This document shows, in pieces, positions 48,714 to 62,653 of a stretch of 64,000 bases of DNA. The notes under the pieces are model-generated. The model was given only the letters and a program-made list of their open reading frames with translations. It searched no databases and had not been told where the DNA came from. Source of the stretch: an uncultured Prevotellaceae bacterium (GTDB taxonomy: Bacteria; Bacteroidota; Bacteroidia; Bacteroidales; Bacteroidaceae); assembly GCA_900313615.1 (NCBI GenBank), contig OMRP01000016.1, positions 7,505-71,504 on the forward strand. The letters run 5' to 3'. Position numbers and translations under genes: made by a program. Within the stretch, counting starts at the first letter, position 1; each line of letters starts with the position of its first letter.

Positions 48714-48775
48714 TACAACCATCAGTCAATTCAACAAACGATTTGGGTTCAGGTGGTATTCGAATCACAAGACGA

Positions 48776-49915: not shown

Positions 49916-50161
49916 GTTTTATTGTTTGACGACATTGCTTAGCGTCAGCTTGGCGGGGCATCACTGTCCCGGTCTTTTTCTTACTATCGTTTTCCTTTAT
50001 TGTCCAGCCACCGCAGGAACCAAATGAAGAGACCGACGACAACAATGGTGACAGCCACGTCGACGGCGCGTTTTCACTGCTCCTAAAACGAAGGCTACTT
50101 GACCGCTTCTTTTGTTCAATTTGTCGTTTAAAACGGTTTGGGTTCAGGTGGTAATCGAACC

Positions 50162-50407
50162 TCAATCGCCGCCGTCAGAACTTTCATAGGGGTTATAGTA
50201 AAAACCACCACCCTCAATTACTCCATTATGGCAATATTTCCATACCCACCACTGGATGGGAAATGTAATGATAGGAAGTAAAGCAAAGCTCAGGAGTGTA
50301 AACAGGAAACCACGGAACCAGGTCCTCGGCCACCAACCTCCACAGTAAAAGAGGAAAAGCGCAACCGACACACCTACTATCCATAATATAGTCCAAAGAG
50401 TTTCCAT
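50162..50407 (-). CDS. Small two-TM protein, METLW family copy A (cassette 2)
   Basis: 81 aa; stop codon abuts the repeat. Confidence 0.8.
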   Translation of the reverse strand: METLWTILWIVGVSVALFLFYCGGWWPRTWFRGFLFTLLSFALLPIITFPIQWWVWKYCHNGVIEGGGFYYNPYESSDGGD

Positions 50408-50441
50408 GATTATTAGTTTAATAGAATCTGTCCTAATAGCA

Positions 50442-50678
50442 TCATGGGGCATCACAATAAGCCGAACTTTCACCGAGTCCTTCATCTAACCATCCACCAT
50501 TGCAAAACTTCCATATAACGTATTGGATGGGAAAGGTAACTATAGGAAGGAAAGCGAAACTCAATAGCGTAAAAAGAAATCCACGGAACCACGTCCTCGG
50601 CCACCAACCTCCGCAGTAGAAAAGAATCAGTGCAATAGTTACACCTACAATCCATAATATAGTCCAAAGAGTTTCCAT
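50442..50678 (-). CDS. Small two-TM protein, METLW family copy B (cassette 2)
   Basis: 78 aa; upstream TTTG-N20-TATTTTTG promoter. Confidence 0.8.
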   Translation of the reverse strand: METLWTILWIVGVTIALILFYCGGWWPRTWFRGFLFTLLSFAFLPIVTFPIQYVIWKFCNGGWLDEGLGESSAYCDAP

Positions 50679-50809
50679 AATCTCTATTTTAGGGATTTCT
50701 GCAACAAAAATAACATTATTATTATTATTTTCCAAATTAATTCACCTTTATTTTGGTCTTACGGTTTAAAACATTTTGGGTTCAGGTGGTATTCGAACCT
50801 CAATCTTCC

Positions 50810-51196
50810 ATGTCTCTCGAACTCTGCCAGCAGCACATACAGCGCGGCATACGCGACATCTTCAATGCACAGCTACAGATAGCCGAGCGGCGCATCTACG
50901 GATTCACGCGCCGGCCCGAACTCATCTCGCGCCGAACGAGGCACCTCCGGCGCGAACTCGCAGCTGCACGTCACTCCGTCAGTCATAGCGGGCAGGGGCT
51001 CACCGCCACCGCACAGGTGCCGCTCTACATCCGCTTCCTCGACATGAAGAAACACGGCAACCTCCAAATCTACAACCGGCAGATCTACGGCATACTCTAC
51101 CACCGGGTGCTCAACCGAATACGCTACGGCTACACCGACGAGATAGCACAACAAATAAGAAAAAGATTAATCGAAGCAGGAGCGGTACTAAGGTGA
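50810..51196 (+). CDS. Bacteroidetes prophage tail-region hypothetical protein (cassette 3)
   Basis: IRFLDMK...IYNR.IYGILY...IRYG motif; GC-rich. Confidence 0.6.
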   Translation: MSLELCQQHIQRGIRDIFNAQLQIAERRIYGFTRRPELISRRTRHLRRELAAARHSVSHSGQGLTATAQVPLYIRFLDMKKHGNLQIYNRQIYGILYHRVLNRIRYGYTDEIAQQIRKRLIEAGAVLR

Positions 51197-51200
51197 AAAG

Positions 51201-51437
51201 TCAGTCGTCACTACTGTAATCTGATCCTGGAAAAAGTTCGCCGTCTCCCCATCCGCCGCGATAAATCATCCAAATAACATATTGGATGGGCAATGTGATG
51301 ATGGGAGTGAATATGAGTGTCAACATAACAAAACAAAAACCACGCCACCATGTGCTGGGCCACCATCCTTTGCAATAGAAAAGGAAGAGAGCGACTGCTG
51401 TCACCAAACCGACTAATATAACCCAGAGAGTTTCCAT
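51201..51437 (-). CDS. METLW family copy C (cassette 3)
   Basis: 78 aa, FYCKGWWP.TW motif. Confidence 0.8.
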   Translation of the reverse strand: METLWVILVGLVTAVALFLFYCKGWWPSTWWRGFCFVMLTLIFTPIITLPIQYVIWMIYRGGWGDGELFPGSDYSSDD

Positions 51438-51448
51438 GGAAATAATTG

Positions 51449-51694
51449 CTAATTATAGGCGGCAGTACTTTCATAAGGGTCATAATGCCCACCGCTACCC
51501 TCTATTATACCGTTATGGCAATATTTCCAAACCCACCACTGGATGGGCAATGTGATGATGGGAGTGAATATGAGTGTCAACATAACAAAACAAAAACCAC
51601 GCCACCATGTTCTTGGCCACCATCCTTTGCAATAGAAAAGGAAGAGAGCGACTGCTGTCACCAAACCGACTAATATAACCCAGAGCGTTTCCAT
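51449..51694 (-). CDS. METLW family copy D (cassette 3)
   Basis: 81 aa; 5' ~155 bp nearly identical to copy C. Confidence 0.8.
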   Translation of the reverse strand: METLWVILVGLVTAVALFLFYCKGWWPRTWWRGFCFVMLTLIFTPIITLPIQWWVWKYCHNGIIEGSGGHYDPYESTAAYN

Positions 51695-51828
51695 AACGAC
51701 TTTTGTTTCTTGATGCAAAAATAAACGACGCATAATGCTTTTACAAGGGTTTTTCCCTATTGTTAAGGGGGAAAACCCCAAATTTATGTTAAGTTTAAAA
51801 CGGTTTGGGTTCAGGTGGTATTCGAACC

Positions 51829-52075
51829 AGAGGTTGGAAAGGGATTCGCTGAGCCCGGCAATATATTTTTTCTGCTCCCCGATATGTCTCTTCATGTCGT
51901 CGATGTTCTTCTGCATACTCCTGCCGGCTTCCGCATCACCTTTTTTCTTCGAGTTTAGGAGACGTTTCTGGGAGTCTTCGAGAGTTTTCAGCTCACTCTC
52001 GAGTTTTTTTAGTTCGTTCTGTGCGTTTTTGCTGTTTACGTCGATGACGGCTCTGAATACTTCTTCGTGTCCCAT
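51829..52075 (-). pseudogene. 5' fragment of a probable tape-measure protein, cut by a repeat (cassette 4)
   Basis: IDVNSKNAQNELKKLE coiled coil runs into repeat 4. Confidence 0.55.
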
Positions 52076-52141
52076 AATAATAGGTGGTATGTTTGCTTCT
52101 CTTGCAAATATACCACCTATATCTTTGGAGCGAAAATACCA

Positions 52142-52423
52142 CTAAGCCGGATTCCTCGACTCCTCGTATGTTTGTTGCACGATATCCTCCAGTTCTCTCT
52201 TCGACTTAGCCCTTAATGTGGTAATTTTATTTATAGAAGACAGCCAAAGGACGGCACAATATTCATTATTCTTGAAATCAACATACGCACTAACTACCTT
52301 ATTCTCGCTACCGAGATCATACATGTTCCTTAGCCTGATTTTGGCCTCAGGTCTATCCTTTTTTTGTCTTCCCATCAGCCAGACAATTATCCAGGATGTT
52401 ATTAAAAGTGCGAGAAATTCCAT
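52142..52423 (-). CDS. Small membrane-anchored protein (cassette 4)
   Basis: 93 aa with an N-terminal TM segment. Confidence 0.65.
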   Translation of the reverse strand: MEFLALLITSWIIVWLMGRQKKDRPEAKIRLRNMYDLGSENKVVSAYVDFKNNEYCAVLWLSSINKITTLRAKSKRELEDIVQQTYEESRNPA

Positions 52424-52491
52424 ATATAGTATGTTTAGTGTTCGTTGTAAAAACCCCCTATACTCCCGCACCGGGGGCTGAAGAGTTCTAT

Positions 52492-52935
52492 CTAAAATGA
52501 TTTATTAAGACGCTGCACGGTAGGTTGCTCTAAAGGCAGACCGTGAGCCAAATCACTTGCAAACTTATTGATACCTTCGCGTATCTTCTTGACCTGGGCC
52601 TCGTGAGGTACTCGCAATGACGCGATATATTGTCGAAGCACAGAAGCGTTCATGCCGATGTATTTTGCGAATGCTGTCACATCGATTGGGTAATAGTCAA
52701 AAAACGAACCTATGTCAAGCCTGAAGTCAAATTGTACTTCAGGGAATCTACGTCCCTCTTCTTCCTCCATTTCTTTGTATTCTTTTACAGTGACAATGAT
52801 GTCATCCATCGCTTCGCGGGCGGTCTTGCCATAGCCGGCCAGGCCACACTTACCGACAGGATCGGGAGAAAAGCATGAGAAATTACCTTTTCCTTTTCCG
52901 CGTTCAACGTAAACAATTCTCTTAACGGTTCCCAT
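52492..52935 (-). CDS. hicB: Orphan HicB-like antitoxin (cassette 4)
   Basis: GYGKTAREAMDD, FAKYIGMNASVLRQY HTH. Confidence 0.78.
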   Translation of the reverse strand: MGTVKRIVYVERGKGKGNFSCFSPDPVGKCGLAGYGKTAREAMDDIIVTVKEYKEMEEEEGRRFPEVQFDFRLDIGSFFDYYPIDVTAFAKYIGMNASVLRQYIASLRVPHEAQVKKIREGINKFASDLAHGLPLEQPTVQRLNKSF

Positions 52936-53019
52936 ATATAATGAGTTATAAATATTATCAAAGTAAAGAGTCCTATTATTAATTAGCAAAGTAATTCGGC
53001 ATGGAAAAAGTTGTGGGGG

Positions 53020-53061
53020 TTATTCCCCCAACAACTTTTTTAAGATTTCTCGGAGAGTACC
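53020..53061 (-). pseudogene. Last 13 codons of a hicA-like gene, cut by repeat 5
   Basis: Translates to GTLREILKKLLGE*, upstream of hicB. Confidence 0.6.
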
Positions 53062-53157
53062 GTTTAAAACGGTTTGGGTTCAGGTGGTATTCGAACCGGA
53101 ATTGCTCCAATTCTTTGGACACCTTCAGTTTACTTTGTCTCTCCATCGCCACACCAT

Positions 53158-53343
53158 TTAAAAGCCCATAGCATCCATCATCGCATCGTATTCCATAGGA
53201 TTACTTGGCATGTCACCATACATGCCGTCAGTCAGCGCATCCCAGGAATCCTCTTCTGTCCATTCGTAGCCACCTTCATTGTAGCTTTCGCACTCGTAAT
53301 CATCGTACTCTTCATAAGAGTCATCATAATAATCTCTTGCCAT
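53158..53343 (-). CDS. Very acidic 61-aa protein (cassette 5)
   Basis: D/E/Y-rich with a single basic residue; only gene in a 301-bp cassette. Confidence 0.75.
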   Translation of the reverse strand: MARDYYDDSYEEYDDYECESYNEGGYEWTEEDSWDALTDGMYGDMPSNPMEYDAMMDAMGF

Positions 53344-53562
53344 AATCTTTTGTTTTTAATCGTTATTACTCTTATTTCTTTACCAAAACACTCTGGGCGT
53401 TTAAAACGGTTTGGGTTCAGGTGGTATTCGAACCCAAAAGTACTTTTTTTCTGAATTATTGATTAAAATGGTTATGTTAATATAGTATTTTAACCTCAAT
53501 GCCTGTCGGTGTCTTAGTTGTGGTTTTATTGAATACGCGATGTTGCATATCTTATATCTTTG

Positions 53563-54168
53563 CTATGTGATATAAAGCATTCGGTATTTCAATCGCGCAC
53601 TATGACACTTTGGGCAGTACAGCGGGTCATCATTTCCTTTTAGTATGTCTTCCTCCTTATTTCTGATTATTGAGCCACATTTTGGACAGACGAAATCTTT
53701 ATCAGACTCTCCAAACGTATGATATTGTTTACTCTCGTTGTGTTCTATAACGAATGCATGGCAGTTAGGGCATTGCCTGCCAATATCACATGACACCGCA
53801 CCATGAACGAAACTTATAATATCCTCATGGTAACCACAGTCGCAACATTCAATCTTTCCCGCGCCACCCATTTGGGAAAAACAGAGATAATGTTCATCCG
53901 GTTTCAAACCCAATTTCTTTTTCAACATAATTTCCTCTTTATCTTTTTTCTTTTCTTCTCTTGTTTTCTTGTATTTGCTAACTGCTACATTAATTAAAAT
54001 TACAGGTAGGAACACGGTTGCGAAGGGTGCCGTAATCAGAAGAGTCAACCACTGCTTAAACGTTGTTTTCTCTGAATCCTTGTTCTTCTTGTTATTATAG
54101 ACCCGAATGCTGATGGTTAAAACAAGACTTATAAACCAATAGATGAGTACATAATGAATCCAATTCAT
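53563..54168 (-). CDS. Two-TM protein with four CxxC zinc-ribbon motifs (cassette 6)
   Basis: CCDC, CPNC, CPKC, CPKC; own TATATTTG promoter. Confidence 0.75.
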   Translation of the reverse strand: MNWIHYVLIYWFISLVLTISIRVYNNKKNKDSEKTTFKQWLTLLITAPFATVFLPVILINVAVSKYKKTREEKKKDKEEIMLKKKLGLKPDEHYLCFSQMGGAGKIECCDCGYHEDIISFVHGAVSCDIGRQCPNCHAFVIEHNESKQYHTFGESDKDFVCPKCGSIIRNKEEDILKGNDDPLYCPKCHSARLKYRMLYIT

Positions 54169-54292
54169 AGTTTTCCCTTCTGTATTGTTTAAGATTAAAA
54201 TGGTTCTGTTACTTATAGAAACTTTGCAAATATAAACATAATAATCGACACAAACAAAATAAATGGGCAAAAGCCTAAAATATGGCACGGAT

Positions 54293-54583
54293 TTATAAAA
54301 ACACTTCCATACCATTGAGGTTATCATAGACCAGCCCGGAGCCGTAGCAGACCTCCGCATTGAAGAGCTGGCACGTCGAAAGTGTCTCGTCGCTTTCTAT
54401 GAGGTCGAGGACACGGAAAGGCAGATTGTTGTCGCCTCCCCACGGCATATAGGCGAGGTTTTTGTCAACGATGAAGGGAGCGGTGTCCTCCGATTCACGG
54501 AAGACTTCGGAGGAGTTGACCGTAAAAGCAGCACTTGCTTTGAGGTCGGGGATGAGTTCTACGCTGTTAAAAGAAAAATCCAT
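54293..54583 (-). pseudogene. N-terminal fragment of a phage portal protein (cassette 6)
   Basis: PWGGDNNLP...DETLSTCQLFNAEVCYGSGL; ends after ~90 aa. Confidence 0.65.
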
Positions 54584-54649
54584 AACTTTGTTTTTGATGC
54601 AAAGTTATGGATTGGTATGTGATGGGGAAAAGACAATAACTATAGACTA

Positions 54650-55099
54650 TTAGTCATTGTCGATGTTCTTTAACATGAAAAGGCACCTTCCTTTTCTATA
54701 GTCTTTAGGTGACAATCTCTTTTTACAATCAAACGCATTTTTATAATCGACAACGTCCCATTCCCATGCTTCCTGCATGATATATTTTTTATCGTATAAA
54801 ATCCATATAAGTTTATCCCACTCATAGTTGGTTGCTTTAGGAGCCATTGTCACGAAGCTACCAGGCTTTCCACTGGGACGATTGGCTTTTACTTGGTATC
54901 TTATGCCATTGAAGACAAAATCAGCCCCCTTGCTAACAGCGGTTTTGTCTTGCATATATTCAGAATATTGGTCTTCAGACATTCCTATGAGCATTGCAGC
55001 ATCATACTCTGAAAGAGAACTGGTAATCGATGGTGATACTCCAAATTTACTTTGCCATGCTAAAGCAATTTCAACAAGATTATCTCTAAGCATATACAT
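54650..55099 (-). CDS. PD-(D/E)XK-like nuclease-fold protein (cassette 6)
   Basis: SEYDAA...GADF...YQVK. Confidence 0.55.
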   Translation of the reverse strand: MYMLRDNLVEIALAWQSKFGVSPSITSSLSEYDAAMLIGMSEDQYSEYMQDKTAVSKGADFVFNGIRYQVKANRPSGKPGSFVTMAPKATNYEWDKLIWILYDKKYIMQEAWEWDVVDYKNAFDCKKRLSPKDYRKGRCLFMLKNIDND

Positions 55100-55225
55100 T
55101 ATTTTTAAGTTTAAAACGGTTTGGGTTCAGGTGGTATTCGAACCGACGAGTATTTTTATCTTAAAAGTTACGGGATTTGGCATGTCGTGTCCTTTTTTTT
55201 TATTATATTTGCAAAAAAAACAAGA

Positions 55226-55501
55226 ATGAAGTTAAAGAAACGAGGTAAGAAACTCTTCGCCTACCTTTTAGTGGCACTGCTCTCTTTTCCGGTGGCATTG
55301 ATTTCATGGTGCTCATCTTGGTATGATGTATGTACCGTAAGTCTCATTATTTTCGTTTTTTCTGTAGTCAAAAGTATCTGTATATATTTGGCCAACTTTT
55401 ACGACAAATACGGGCTTTTGAGCAGGCAAGGGCCAGACACACTGTTCGAATACGAGCCGGGCGACAAAGAGTATGAAGAAGAGAAGAAATGGCAGCGATA
55501 G
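55226..55501 (+). CDS. Small two-TM protein (cassette 7)
   Basis: 91 aa, own promoter; TAG stop is completed by the first G of repeat 8. Confidence 0.75.
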   Translation: MKLKKRGKKLFAYLLVALLSFPVALISWCSSWYDVCTVSLIIFVFSVVKSICIYLANFYDKYGLLSRQGPDTLFEYEPGDKEYEEEKKWQR

Positions 55502-55579
55502 TTTAAAACGGTTTGGGTTCAGGTGGTATTCGAACCCTGAATTTTTTTGGAGATTAAAAAAATTTGTTTATCGTTTGCA

Positions 55580-55653
55580 ACGAGGATTCCGTAGCTAATG
55601 ACTACCGATTCTTCGCCAGAATGAGGAATGAGCAATCATTCCTCAAACTTTTT
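55580..55653 (+). ncRNA. Candidate sRNA, two hairpins (cassette 8)
   Basis: Stem with 7-nt CUAAUGA loop; perfect 10-bp tgaggaatga-gcaa-tcattcctca hairpin plus U-tract. Confidence 0.5.
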
Positions 55654-55725
55654 ATAGAACACAAATGATATGGTGGAGTTGAATTTCGTTCATTTTGTTG
55701 TATTTTTGCAGTAAAAAAATCAGTT

Positions 55726-56160
55726 ATGACTATTATATCCAACTCCGAAGACAGCAAAACAACATTTCTCGAGCTAATAAATCAGAGAAGAGCTTTGAAC
55801 AACGAACTGTCAGTTGTGCTTCGCCATTACACAGGCATATCGTCCACTCTACTTGCTCTATTGGCTGTGTTTGGTGATATAGCTTCGTTTTCCCTTCCAG
55901 TAAGGATTCTGATTTCAGCGAGTATGACGTGTTTACTTTCATCTGTTCTGTCGGGAGTGTGGTGCTGTATGGCAGTTTATCTAACACGCGAAAGAGCCAT
56001 GGGAAGAGTTCTCGAACAGCTGAGGACGAAAGCCGGAAATGCTCAAGGGTCAGTATCTCCCCCTTTCGGATTCTCCTTTTTTGTGCGATTCTGCCCCACC
56101 ATGTTGTGCTTGGGCGTTCTATTCTTATGGCTGAGCGCCATGTTTTTGTTGTTTTTTTAA
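55726..56160 (+). CDS. Three-TM membrane protein (cassette 8)
   Basis: 144 aa, hydrophobic segments, TATTTTTG -7 element. Confidence 0.7.
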   Translation: MTIISNSEDSKTTFLELINQRRALNNELSVVLRHYTGISSTLLALLAVFGDIASFSLPVRILISASMTCLLSSVLSGVWCCMAVYLTRERAMGRVLEQLRTKAGNAQGSVSPPFGFSFFVRFCPTMLCLGVLFLWLSAMFLLFF

Positions 56161-56223
56161 TGCTTTCTTCCATTTTTTTTGTGTTTTTTATTTGGAAGTT
56201 AAAATATTTTGTTTATCTTTGCA

Positions 56224-56290
56224 GTTGGAATAGCATCAGGGTTGAGCCTTGGATTGTAACTCCAGGTAGTTCTTCCTTTTTGCTATTTCT
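56224..56290 (+). ncRNA. Candidate sRNA with a tRNA-anticodon-like hairpin, convergent on the MuF gene end (cassette 8)
   Basis: TTTG-N19-TATCTTTG promoter; CTTGGA-TTGTAAC-TCCAGG; closing gaatagca/tgctattt stem. Confidence 0.5.
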
Positions 56291-56954
56291 TTTTTATGTA
56301 TTTCTTTATTTCTTCTGGATTGTCAGAAATGGAATGGAGGACGTATTCTCCCCAGTCCCACTCCCAAACAATTATACATTGTTCATCCCCTTTTACCTTA
56401 GTGGAGAAAATATGACTTTGCTTTAATTTTGGCTTTTGGTTATGAGGCGGAAGTGTCGATGGTCCCAGGTATTCACACTCTTTTTCTTCAAACACTTCAT
56501 TTATACGTAGTAGCATCTTGTTTTTTTCTTGATAGTGTTTGTTGGGTTGGTTGGTCCATTCTGTTATTGATGCTCTTGATATATTTATAGGATGGGGAAA
56601 TTTCGATGTGTTGATAGAAGTCCCCTGTAGTGGTTTGGCTTGTTTCCTTGTCTGCTTGGCATCAGCATTTGCTAATGATCTGACAATCCGGCATGCTGCA
56701 CACAGTTCATTCTCGGGCACGAAAGCGAGGTTGACTTTTCCCTGTGCGATGTCGCAGTCTCGGCAACGTCGTATGGTGTATGGGTTGTAGTCCGGAATAG
56801 TCTTCTGCTCTATGCCTGGATTGAAGTGGAAGATGCCCTTGTTGTCCTTTCCGGTTGCCGCCTCTCCGAGTGCCATTGCCTCGTCGTGCGGGGTCACGGG
56901 ATACTTTGACTTGCGGACCTGGACAACAGTGCATCGGCAGTTCCAGCCGTTTGG
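56283..56954 (-). pseudogene. 3' fragment of phage head morphogenesis protein (MuF) with C-terminal extension, cut by repeat 9
   Basis: Begins PNGWNCRCTVVQVRK directly at the repeat. Confidence 0.8.
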
Positions 56955-56990
56955 GTTTAAAACGGTTTGGGTTCAGGTGGTATTCGAACC

Positions 56991-57151
56991 GTGAGTATGG
57001 CCCTTCCCTGGTTCCTGACAGGCGACTTTCGTCGCTGCCAAGCCTGGGAGAAGAAGGCCTGACGTTCGAAGTTCCGGTCGAACTCGTCGGTGAGTTCTAC
57101 CTGAATGTCGCGGAGGATGTTTTTTATTATTTTCTGAATATTTTCGGGCAT
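56991..57151 (-). pseudogene. 5' fragment of phage virion morphogenesis protein (Mu gpG-like), cut by repeat 9 (cassette 9)
   Basis: DIQVELTDEFDRNFERQAFFSQAWQRRKS. Confidence 0.72.
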
Positions 57152-57188
57152 TTTGTTTGGAGGTTAGGGATTTCTTTGTATCTTTGCA

Positions 57189-57275
57189 GTGTCCTTAGTG
57201 ACTACCCGCTGAGTATGCGTGGGGATTGGGCTTTATCGTACCGTCCCATTTGGCTGTCTTCGGATAGCCTTTTTT
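57189..57275 (+). ncRNA. Candidate sRNA with promoter and terminator (cassette 9)
   Basis: TTTG(57156)-N19-TATCTTTG(57179); ggctgtc-ttcg-gatagcc-T6 terminator; no ORF inside. Confidence 0.55.
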
Positions 57276-57425
57276 ATTGTTCGATACGTTTTCTGAACTC
57301 CTTGTAGAACGTTCTCTTCATAACAAAGTTCCTTTCCACAGACACCATCTTTTTCCCAACTGCTACCAGCACTTCCAGTGCCTCGTTGTTAGCCTCGAAG
57401 TATTGTTTGATTTCTGTGGCCATTC
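57274..57425 (-). pseudogene. 3' end of an upstream phage gene (probably a MuF extension), cut by repeat 10
   Basis: 49-aa tail MATEIKQYF...FRKRIEQ*; upstream of the virion morphogenesis gene. Confidence 0.45.
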
Positions 57426-57483
57426 GTTTAAAACGGTTTGGGTTCAGGTGGTATTCGAACCATTAAAAATGAAATAAGTCATT

Positions 57484-57729
57484 TTAATCGCTACTACTAT
57501 AAAACGCAGCACTCTTTTGTGTGTTGCCATCTCCATCTCCCCATCCACCATGGTAAATCATCCATATAACATACTGAATAGGGAAAGTGATAATCGGAGT
57601 AAACAGACAAGTCAATATGATAAACAAAAAACCACGAAACCATGTACTGGGCCACCATCCTTTACAATAAAAAAGGAAGAGAGCCACCGTCAGCACAACC
57701 CCAACCAATATTGTCCAAAGCGTTTCCAT
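57484..57729 (-). CDS. METLW family copy E (cassette 10)
   Basis: 81 aa; upstream promoter region homologous to cassette 2. Confidence 0.8.
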   Translation of the reverse strand: METLWTILVGVVLTVALFLFYCKGWWPSTWFRGFLFIILTCLFTPIITFPIQYVIWMIYHGGWGDGDGNTQKSAAFYSSSD

Positions 57730-57860
57730 GATTTCTGATTGAAATAACTTCACCACAAAAATAATATTAATAATAATATTTTCCAAATTAATTCACCTTT
57801 ATTGTTTAAAACGGTTTGGGTTCAGGTGGTATTCGAACCTATCGGCATTGCGAACAATTC

Positions 57861-61358: not shown

Positions 61359-61476
61359 CTTTAATTGGTAATTTTTTGAGGCAAAGATAGTTGTAATTTT
61401 TATAATTACAAAAAAATGAAAGAAATAATGAGCAATTTATATTATTCCTTCATTTTTTTAGTAATTTAGCCGAAAA
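61359..61476 (-). promoter_or_regulatory. Array leader with a promoter facing into the array
   Basis: AT-rich; minus-strand TTTG(61412-61409)-N19-TATCTTTG(61389-61382); palindrome TTGTAATT-N5-AATTACAA. Confidence 0.78.
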
Positions 61477-62334
61477 ATGGCAAAGCAAACTTTAGTATTC
61501 GAATCATCAAAAGAACTATCCTTAAGAGATGGTATGTTGGTCATTACCAACAGGGAGACTGAAGAGACGACATTGCGCTCGTTGGAGGACATCCAGATGA
61601 TCATGGTGGATAATCATTCCGTCAAGATAACGATTCCTCTCATCGCTAAATTATCGAAATTAAATATCGGTGTTGTGTTCTGCGACGAGAAACATATGCC
61701 TGTGTCGATGTTGTTGGATTTGGAATCTAATACCTTGCAGTCGAAAAGGATAAGATGTCAGTTGGCTGCATCAAAACCAGTCAATAAACAAATATGGAAA
61801 CAAATTGTAGAGGCTAAAATCCGTAACCAGTCTTTATTGCTTGAGAAATTGGGCATTGGCAAATCATTGCTTGCCACCTACTACAACAATGTCAAAAGTG
61901 GCGATTCCACCAATCGGGAAGGGATGGCTGCAAGAGTGTATTGGTTGAAACTCATTGGAAAGAACTTTATTCGTGATAGGTTTGGAGGACCTCCGAATGC
62001 TCTCCTTAATTACGGCTATACCGTGCTCCGTTCTATGGTGGCCAGAAGTCTCATGAATGCAGGACTGCTTCCTCTCGTGGGAATCTTCCATCATAATTGT
62101 CACAATGCTTTTCCTTTGGCCGATGATGTTATGGAACCATATAGACCTTATGTTGACTATCGGGTAATAATAATGCTGAAAGAAGGACTGACGGAAGTGT
62201 GCAGAGAATCGAAGAGACGGCTATTGGAATTATTTTATCAAGATATTTCTGCTGACGCAATGTCATTGACGGCTTCTTCACTGGCTGGTATTTATGAAGA
62301 AGATGGTAGAGTTATTGTTTATCCAACGATTTGA
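61477..62334 (+). CDS. cas1: CRISPR-associated integrase Cas1 (type II-like)
   Basis: FCDEKHMP, KIRNQ, SGDSTNREG, NALLNYGY, GIFHH, LADDVMEPYRP. Confidence 0.95.
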   Translation: MAKQTLVFESSKELSLRDGMLVITNRETEETTLRSLEDIQMIMVDNHSVKITIPLIAKLSKLNIGVVFCDEKHMPVSMLLDLESNTLQSKRIRCQLAASKPVNKQIWKQIVEAKIRNQSLLLEKLGIGKSLLATYYNNVKSGDSTNREGMAARVYWLKLIGKNFIRDRFGGPPNALLNYGYTVLRSMVARSLMNAGLLPLVGIFHHNCHNAFPLADDVMEPYRPYVDYRVIIMLKEGLTEVCRESKRRLLELFYQDISADAMSLTASSLAGIYEEDGRVIVYPTI

Positions 62335-62338
62335 AAAT

Positions 62339-62653
62339 ATGTGGATCTATGTTGTTACAAGTTTCACCCGCTATAACAAGGTGGGACGAAAAGCAAAGGA
62401 TGTTTTTCAAAAGTCAATAGTTAAAGATGGATTCTTCCAACTACATGAGAATCTGTATGTCAGGTATTGCAGCACGGTAGGTAATGCTAATATGCATAAA
62501 GAACGAGTAAAGAACGTCATACCGATAAAGTGTTGCGATGTGAGCATTATTATGACCGCTGATAGTCAGGAAAGCAATATCTATCACAGCCTTAATAGGA
62601 AAAGGTCAAAATGTATTGTTTATGGAAAACATGGCAATGTGGAATTCTTCTAG
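62339..62653 (+). CDS. cas2: Divergent Cas2 (type II-like)
   Basis: Follows cas1; KDGF.QL...YVRYC...A..H.ERVK..IP; usual FD(L)P motif replaced by TSFT. Confidence 0.82.
   Translation: MWIYVVTSFTRYNKVGRKAKDVFQKSIVKDGFFQLHENLYVRYCSTVGNANMHKERVKNVIPIKCCDVSIIMTADSQESNIYHSLNRKRSKCIVYGKHGNVEFF

Follow-up and report, generated by a model that had tools for sequence, protein, structure and literature searches.

Recurrent capture of a small moron-encoded membrane protein family between CRISPR-type repeats in Prevotellaceae

Introduction

Gene 15 of phage HK97, the first moron to be described, lies between the gene for the tail assembly chaperone and that for the tape-measure protein, and its product gp15, a small protein of the inner membrane, prevents injection of the genome in a manner dependent on the incoming tail (PMC3594210). 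The present work concerns a family of small membrane proteins, called here the METLW family after the conserved start of its members, five of which are encoded in a 64,000-nucleotide (nt) stretch of DNA from an uncultured Prevotellaceae bacterium (GenBank assembly GCA_900313615.1, contig OMRP01000016.1, positions 7,505 to 71,504 of the forward strand; the whole of this stretch is referred to as the window), where they are held in cassettes between CRISPR-type repeats. Prevotella is a dominant genus of the rumen and gut and, to our knowledge, small moron-encoded membrane exclusion factors are known but poorly charted, with none characterised for this genus. T4 Imm has about 83 amino acids (aa) and two hydrophobic segments, and together with P22 SieA and lactococcal Sie2009 it resembles the METLW proteins in size class, membrane location and the proposed step of action, namely DNA transfer across the inner membrane.

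The likeness to HK97 gp15 extends to genomic position. Both are small inner-membrane proteins encoded in a unit of low guanine-plus-cytosine (GC) content with its own promoter on the promoter-proximal side of the tape-measure gene, and homologues of both are found also in bacterial chromosomes outside prophages. The slot occupied by METLW genes in a rumen prophage (L010) and a related viral contig (L011) matches that of gp15, the identity of the adjoining 133-aa gene as the chaperone gene being positional. However, METLW proteins have no sequence similarity to gp15 or its relative YebO (Pfam at expectation values, E, up to 1, and a profile search of 1.84 billion proteins); they consist of two helices and an acidic tail, are encoded by one to four tandem paralogues on the opposite strand and occur in Bacteroidota instead of enterobacteria, and their exclusion role is putative.

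With CRISPR spacers the METLW copies share a location between CRISPR-type repeats beside cas1-cas2, a leader promoter and a more pronounced decay of the far-end repeats, but the inserts of the window array are gene-sized (0.3-3.5 kb) and hold whole promoter-bearing genes, no CRISPR effector gene is found in the window, and any protection would be exerted via protein and not via guide RNA. Short, often single-gene units bounded by repeats are also characteristic of integron cassettes and of the orphan-immunity arrays of Bacteroidales, and in cassettes 2 and 7 of the window the repeat follows directly after the stop codon, as an attC site does. Unlike integrons, the window array is without integrase or tyrosine recombinase, its repeats are of CRISPR type and identical, orientation within it is not fixed, random cuts through genes are seen in its other cassettes, and promoters come with the cassettes themselves. 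What is unusual is the repeated storage of a moron gene between CRISPR-type repeats. METLW also offers a first concrete hint as to what is kept by selection in CRISPR-like arrays whose inserts are gene-sized.

The METLW family

A first-pass annotation of the window had reported five paralogs of 78-81 aa with a common motif in cassettes 2, 3 and 10, and all five are indeed present on the minus strand, with copies A and B held by cassette 2 (50162-50763), C and D by cassette 3 (50800-51792) and E by cassette 10 (57462-57803) (Table 1). Thirty-three alignment columns are invariant among them, identity to copy A is 52-69%, and a profile of the five copies finds exactly these five places in the 2.77-Mb genome (E 2e-44 to 3e-42). 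All five are intact, and the METLW start is kept irrespective of the upstream sequence; the longer open reading frames (ORFs) of 97-107 aa that can be drawn for these genes are artefacts, their upstream starts falling inside the promoter.

Two hydrophobic segments (residues 3-25 and 30-55) are found in each copy, together with a loop of net charge +2 or +3 with the near-invariant basic and aromatic motif GWWP.TW.RGF, and a tail of net charge -2 to -4. The AlphaFold model, built from a 30-sequence alignment, has helices at residues 2-22 and 30-60 and a disordered tail, with a mean predicted local distance difference test score of 69. Over 30 family members the mean column entropy amounts to 0.71 bits in the hairpin versus 1.75 bits in the tail, and the variable acidic tail falls into three classes that recur across the family, with the consensus sequences WWVWKYCHNG..EG.GG..PYES (alpha), YVIWKFCNGGWLDEGLGES (beta) and YVIWMIYRGGWGDG (gamma). 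Hairpin and tail types have been recombined among family members, and copy D is one such recombinant with a gamma-type N-terminal hairpin and an alpha-type tail. The hairpin is under purifying selection, the ratio of nonsynonymous to synonymous divergence (dN/dS) over codons 1-56 being 0.03-0.17 in most comparisons, including all those of orthologous copies, and because such values are obtained at dS up to >1, the METLW ORFs are genuine coding genes. A lipoprotein or a signal peptide was considered and rejected, since the N-terminal M-E-T is without a basic residue, the F-Y before the conserved Cys22 does not make a lipobox and a second hydrophobic helix is present.

METLW is a new and very narrow family of inner-membrane proteins of about 80 residues, belonging to a known kind, that of moron-encoded small membrane proteins. 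When all five copies were scanned against Pfam at E up to 1, no family reached its threshold, and no exclusion or immunity family was among the matches; no PHROG matched below E 0.01 (best E 0.015), and in these respects as well as in genomic position METLW differs from T4 Imm, P22 SieA and Sie2009. Copies A, C and E matched no PADLOC defence model, PDB sequences yielded no real match (one chance match, E 0.047), the best ESM Atlas feature score of 0.84 lies under the useful range, and a Foldseek search of the viral models of BFVD gave no match (best E 1.1). A word-indexed search of 5.8 billion proteins returned 16 clusters, and an exhaustive profile search of 1.84 billion representative proteins returned 11 matches, six of them below 1e-10, comprising the family itself only. 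No METLW gene is present in 400 other genomes of the same bacterial family, tblastn gave no match in 50,697 GenBank phage records, and 185,579 species genomes contained two further loci, both in Prevotella or Prevotellaceae from ruminants.

Native position beside the tape-measure gene

In the prophage L010, which lies in a 280-kb rumen contig, three tandem METLW copies in the order gamma, beta, alpha are inserted on the opposite strand between the 133-aa gene, by its position a putative tail assembly chaperone gene, and the gene for a 1375-aa tape-measure protein (PF10145; matches to PHROG tape-measure families with E as low as 4e-38), directly upstream of the latter gene. The 35-kb IMG/VR contig L011, which shares 95-99% identity with L010 in the neighbouring structural genes, retains in the same slot a single, internally deleted METLW remnant. 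The unit has a GC content of 0.416 as compared to 0.55-0.58 in the flanking genes and is preceded by its own Bacteroidetes-type promoter. Own promoter, deviant GC content, the difference in presence between L010 and L011, and a position within a late operon are the features of a moron in the sense of Juhala and Hendrix. These observations support the view that METLW belongs natively to a moron, with one to three genes in tandem, of siphovirus-type rumen Prevotella phages, and the earlier expectation that the family would be phage-associated and found close to tape-measure genes was borne out by its location directly upstream of such a gene in both L010 and L011.

Cassette 3 preserves a part of this arrangement. 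Its C-D pair had been described as lying antisense to a phage tail-region gene in a typical moron position; the moron position stands, but the pair converges on the 128-aa gene and does not overlap it. This gene is a homologue (79% aa identity) of the 133-aa L010 gene that borders the moron at its end distal to the tape-measure gene, and its assignment to the tail region follows from position only. The donor phage itself was not found in the host: in the window's genome, which is 82% complete, its 451-aa structural protein has no match and its tape-measure protein only a 25%-identical relative.

Separate captures between repeats

The window contains 11 exact or near-exact matches to the 36-nt repeat GTTTAAAACGGTTTGGGTTCAGGTGGTATTCGAACC, a repeat type designated GTTTAAAA...TTCGAACC, versus 0 expected by chance, with a further decayed copy at 48731. 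The repeats are spaced 337-3519 nt apart and the array lies upstream of cas1. Cassettes 2 and 3 lie at the old end, the repeats of which have one or two mutations; cassette 10 is the second-newest. No conserved bases suggestive of a protospacer-adjacent motif or a recombination site are seen at the cassette ends. In 400 other genomes of the same family no array of the window repeat type is present, a loose pattern (GTTTAAAM-N18-22-TWYGAACC) gives single matches only in 15 of these 400, and a scan for the exact repeat core in Joint Genome Institute metagenome contigs and IMG/VR gave 0 matches. An identical Cas1 protein is encoded in at least 22 contigs from several ruminant studies, among which L035-L044 are equivalents of the window at 51-62 kb, and the stretch with cassettes 2 and 3 was found in 15 sequencing runs (14 of them DNA) from at least eight studies of cattle and sheep gut.

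The three METLW cassettes of the window differ in their extent. Cassette 2 begins 11 nt upstream of the promoter block and is closed by the stop codon of copy A, onto which the repeat follows directly; cassette 10 begins 16 nt upstream of the -33 box and includes 22 nt beyond the stop codon of copy E, so that its 342 bp enclose a promoter-plus-gene unit of 304 bp with 38 bp of slack; and cassette 3 takes in 10 nt ahead of the 128-aa gene at one end and stops about 71 nt short of the would-be start of the tape-measure gene at the other. The upstream block that cassettes 2 and 10 had been said to share is found at 50656-50752 and 57707-57803, the two being 79% identical over 97 nt, and the junctions differ by 11 nt, as had been reported, reading AAAC|CGTAAGACCAAAATAAAGG in cassette 2 and AAAC|AATAAAGG in cassette 10. 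The closest relatives outside the window differ as well. Cassette 3 is 98% identical to L010, and the first 200 nt of copy C are 98.5% identical to the first METLW gene of that prophage. Cassette 2 is 87% identical to L012, a locus of a Prevotella metagenome-assembled genome (L012:9290-10290) in which a three-gene METLW unit without CRISPR-type repeat lies between RarA/MgsA and a CN-hydrolase gene, and copy A has 98% aa identity to the third gene of this unit. The same 40-nt spacer follows each gene of the L012 unit, which points to tandem amplification.

That the five copies might descend from a single captured cassette by duplication within the array would be in keeping with the nearly identical 5' halves of copies C and D (dS 0.105) and with hybrid genes such as P0001, which show that copies recombine. 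However, all six junctions, the flanking phage DNA and the tail classes differ among the three cassettes, the adjacent 128-aa phage gene is present only in cassette 3, each cassette has a different closest outside relative, dS between cassettes is about 1 or more, and the cassettes lie partly at the old, repeat-mutated end (2 and 3) and partly in the second-newest position (10). Duplication is hence very improbable and was rejected, and the earlier preference for independent captures is supported by the ends, gene content and closest relatives, all of which differ among the cassettes.

Separate capture is also documented outside the window. Syntenic arrays with the same repeat in L006, L007 and L008 hold a METLW cassette in the opposite orientation, and in L006 the next repeat cuts the second METLW copy after 24 codons. 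In L007 the array adjoins RpiB, and a Gln-amidase gene replaces cas1-cas2. A second repeat variant flanks the METLW cassette of the L013-type locus, which consists of two repeats with the leader and about 140 nt of the decayed 5' end of cas1 preceding the cassette and is an orphan remnant of a system of this kind; METLW genes number two in L013, three in L033 and four in L014/L015. In L033 the unit of cas1 remnant, leader and repeat is present twice. A third repeat variant flanks the METLW cassette of the two-repeat locus L016, beside GmrSD-type genes. In all, six capture events are supported (window cassettes 2, 3 and 10; L006/L007/L008; L013/L014/L015/L033; L016), with distinct junctions, three repeat variants and both orientations, and each of them keeps at least one whole gene. 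L009, in which repeats of the window type and of the L013 type are joined in opposite orientation, was not counted, since it may be a chimeric assembly.

Table 1. Location of METLW genes, promoters, repeats and associated features (window coordinates unless a locus is named)
Feature	Location	Strand	Remarks
Copy A	50162..50407	-	81 aa; alpha-type tail (WWVWKYCHNG...PYESSDGGD); stop codon abuts repeat at 50161
Copy B	50442..50678	-	78 aa; beta-type tail (YVIWKFCNGGWLDEGLGES...); leads the B-A pair, with 34 nt between it and A
Copy C	51201..51437	-	78 aa; gamma-type tail (YVIWMIYRGGWGDG...)
Copy D	51449..51694	-	81 aa; 11 nt upstream of C
Copy E	57484..57729	-	81 aa; gamma-type tail; sole gene of the 342-bp cassette 10
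Promoter of copy B	50705..50736	-	full consensus TTTG-N20-TATTTTTG; 28 nt inside cassette edge
Promoter of copy D	51716..51747	-	near-consensus CTTG-N20-TATTTTTG; one mismatch in -33 box
Promoter of copy E	57756..57787	-	full consensus TTTG-N20-TATTTTTG; 16 nt inside cassette edge
128-aa phage gene, intact	50810..51196	+	cassette 3; converges on C and D; no family match
Repeat bounding cassette 2	50126..50161	+	1 mismatch to GTTTAAAACGGTTTGGGTTCAGGTGGTATTCGAACC
Repeat between cassettes 2 and 3	50764..50799	+	2 mismatches
Repeat between cassettes 3 and 4	51793..51828	+	exact
Repeat between cassettes 9 and 10	57426..57461	+	exact
Repeat between cassettes 10 and 11	57804..57839	+	exact
Clustered cassette ends	50752-50763, 57803, 51792; L006:9982		cassettes 2, 10, 3 and L006
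L013/L033/L014 METLW cassette	L013:9240-10465; L033:100-2366; L014:2412-3933		flanked by second repeat variant (GGTTCAAATAYTACCAATACCC...)
Leader promoter	61382..61412	-	between last repeat and cas1; reads into array on the strand of all five copies
cas1 and cas2	61477..62653	+	PF01867, E 1.6e-27; PADLOC Cas2_II, E 2e-12; array context, outside METLW family
Cassette 4	51829-53061		probable tape-measure N-terminal fragment; 28% identity to residues 12-77 of the L011 tape-measure protein, E 0.001
Cassette 7	55145-55501		single 91-aa two-helix membrane protein; stop TAG completed by first G of next repeat
Mini-array, same genome	contig C18:127410-127925 (L029:3011-3526)		two repeats of third repeat variant (GTTTAAAAAGGTTCAGGTACTATATGAATTCGAACC), beside GmrSD/DUF262-type gene

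Promoters and expression

The full Bacteroidetes promoter consensus TTTG-N19-21-TAnnTTTG occurs 13 times in the window versus 0.76 times expected, and perfect matches to it precede copies B and E, which agrees with the initial proposal that the block shared by cassettes 2 and 10 is a promoter. The leader promoter is a further match to this consensus, and all three are on the strand of the METLW genes. The element of copy D is present also in the prophage L010 and in L012. Judged from the gaps of 34 and 11 nt, A is probably co-transcribed with B and C with D, and expression would proceed from the captured promoters (B-A, D-C and E), supplemented by read-through from the array leader. The metatranscriptome contigs X19 and X20 carry the 40-nt spacer of L012 and come from an L012-type tandem locus and not from the window array.

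Possible function and reasons for retention

On the basis of the likeness to HK97 gp15 and of the protein build, METLW proteins are tentatively proposed to be phage-exclusion factors that block DNA entry, a reading that we regard as a real possibility but somewhat short of probable. The protein would sit in the inner membrane as a two-helix hairpin whose ends would both be periplasmic and whose GWWP.TW.RGF loop would be cytoplasmic, its acidic C-terminal tail of 20-25 residues would meet the tail tip or the tape-measure protein of an incoming phage, and by this contact the incoming phage protein would be kept from forming a channel for DNA across the inner membrane. The phages excluded would differ from one tail class to another, and the retention of several alleles would thereby be accounted for. 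The units that persist still have the promoter and one complete gene or more; the host that carries them is one in which the donor phage was not found.

With a donor phage of 40 kb assumed and cassettes as long as those observed, the chance that a random fragment includes the whole of a promoter-plus-gene unit is ~0.015-0.03, and at least three such cassettes among 11 are expected with p ~0.004, by a calculation that is post hoc. The first-pass annotation had taken repeated retention to indicate a strong protective role; as proof of strong selection this does not stand, since the enrichment is modest and post hoc, and a capture hot spot could explain it. The tight fit of cassettes 10 and 2 and the presence of intact copies where cas1 has decayed argue for retention beyond chance.

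A hot spot of capture just upstream of the tape-measure gene, perhaps caused by divergent transcription or a structure that makes DNA ends, would render the membrane genes passengers without host benefit. We consider this unlikely, though deserving of serious weight. The ends of four independent events (cassettes 2, 10, 3 and L006) are located 63-74 nt upstream of the start codon of the tape-measure gene, within about 12 nt of each other, a cluster that could reflect a preferred cut site or else selection that keeps the promoter but nothing beyond. Tape-measure 5' pieces are present in L016 and L013 and a probable tape-measure N-terminus (E 0.001) in cassette 4, and the cut through the second gene of L006 indicates that capture is not gene-aware. 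Moreover, leader-proximal cassettes are the same as in the window wherever assembled, the array being identical in at least 10 samples with identical Cas1, such that recent acquisition or turnover is not visible. However, a hot spot accounts for one end and not for both, considering the 38 bp of slack in cassette 10 and the end of cassette 2 on a stop codon; copies are still intact in orphan arrays with decayed cas1, the unit recurs in arrays of each of three repeat variants, and trimming just as tight is seen around other small two-helix membrane proteins (cassette 7 and the C18 mini-array).

Besides the cluster of cassette ends, the tape-measure pieces and the static array, several further observations weigh against an exclusion function kept by selection. 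All arrays outside the window were found via the METLW protein, so the estimate of enrichment is biased. There is no sequence or fold tie to known exclusion proteins in Pfam, PHROG, PADLOC, PDB or viral models, the topology with a cytoplasmic loop and periplasmic ends is predicted by the positive-inside rule alone, and METLW occurs also in the plain chromosomal context of L012. Purifying selection on the hairpin may be largely older than capture, and the copies of the L013-type cassette have been reshuffled by recombination and give no clean post-capture dN/dS. One of the four copies in L014 carries stop codons, and P0016 is a frameshifted form of copy B. The RNA evidence for METLW expression is weak: in the RNA-library contigs X15 and X16, cassettes 1-3 have the same low depth as their neighbours and may be DNA carry-over.

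Apart from phage entry, a role in lysogenic conversion or immunity can be envisaged, either as immunity to a membrane-targeting bacteriocin or type VI effector or by modulation of a transporter or sensor in the host membrane. Variable exposed tails on small membrane proteins present in several copies are a typical feature of toxin immunity genes, the orphan-immunity clusters of Bacteroidales resemble tandem paralogue arrays, and METLW genes are found away from phages, in L012 beside RarA and the CN-hydrolase gene and, as a distant member, in L030 beside SusC/SusD genes. In the loci read, however, none of the copies has a toxin gene beside it, the native site is immediately next to the tape-measure gene, and no immunity family of Pfam or PADLOC is matched, which leaves such a role quite unlikely.

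Improbable to a greater degree is an abortive-infection or holin-like toxin, harmless until a phage triggers membrane depolarisation and cell death. Class II holins and small membrane toxins overlap METLW in size and two-helix build, and HicA/HicB-like toxin-antitoxin genes are present in cassette 1 of the same array. Yet no holin family of Pfam or PHROGs is matched, the genes reside in the tail module on the opposite strand and away from any lysis gene, the tail is acidic (net -2 to -4) and not basic, the promoters are of a constitutive type, and a toxin present in as many as four tandem copies would come at a high cost. A class II holin was specifically rejected on the grounds of family match, position and strand, and the acidic C-terminus.

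A wider and unlikely proposal, ventured as speculation, is that Cas1-Cas2 arrays with gene-sized inserts act as an immune memory at the protein level, a captured exclusion moron being expressed without its phage and conferring its exclusion spectrum. METLW would then be the first recurrent cargo to show the purpose of such arrays, and the three tail classes would be specificity alleles; were the cargo to consist of protective phage genes, the arrays would be a second, protein-based form of acquired immunity. A defined phage slot, three natural tail alleles and a host in which the phage was not found make up a clean system for the study of allele-specific exclusion.

Related loci and other cassettes

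Four METLW members, one of them very divergent, are found in a mosaic (L017:1000-4800, L018:250-7907) in which they alternate with repeated pieces of the tape-measure 5' end and of the 3' end of the 133-aa gene, in the neighbourhood of a WG-repeat gene, a type II-C array with 47-nt repeats and cas2-cas1-cas9. No bounding repeat of the window type was found in L017 or L018; a 33-nt element, GTACCCAYACTAAATCTTGTAGAACCAATTAAT, is present at two junctions.

Cassette 4 contains a 109-aa gene and a 165-aa gene ahead of its tape-measure fragment, and a different phage may carry different genes in the same slot. The C18 mini-array holds a single 444-bp cassette with an unrelated 63-aa two-helix membrane protein that also ends in an acidic tail, and its repeat type is the one that flanks the METLW gene of L016. 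A homologue with 79% identity to the cassette 7 protein is encoded at L006:8824-9099, in a cassette which also holds a 60-aa membrane protein and, on the opposite strand, an N-terminal gene fragment cut by the repeat. Another cassette of the same array (L006:9421-9945) contains a complete gene for ribosomal protein S20 (PF01649), and thus host genes have been captured as well as phage DNA.

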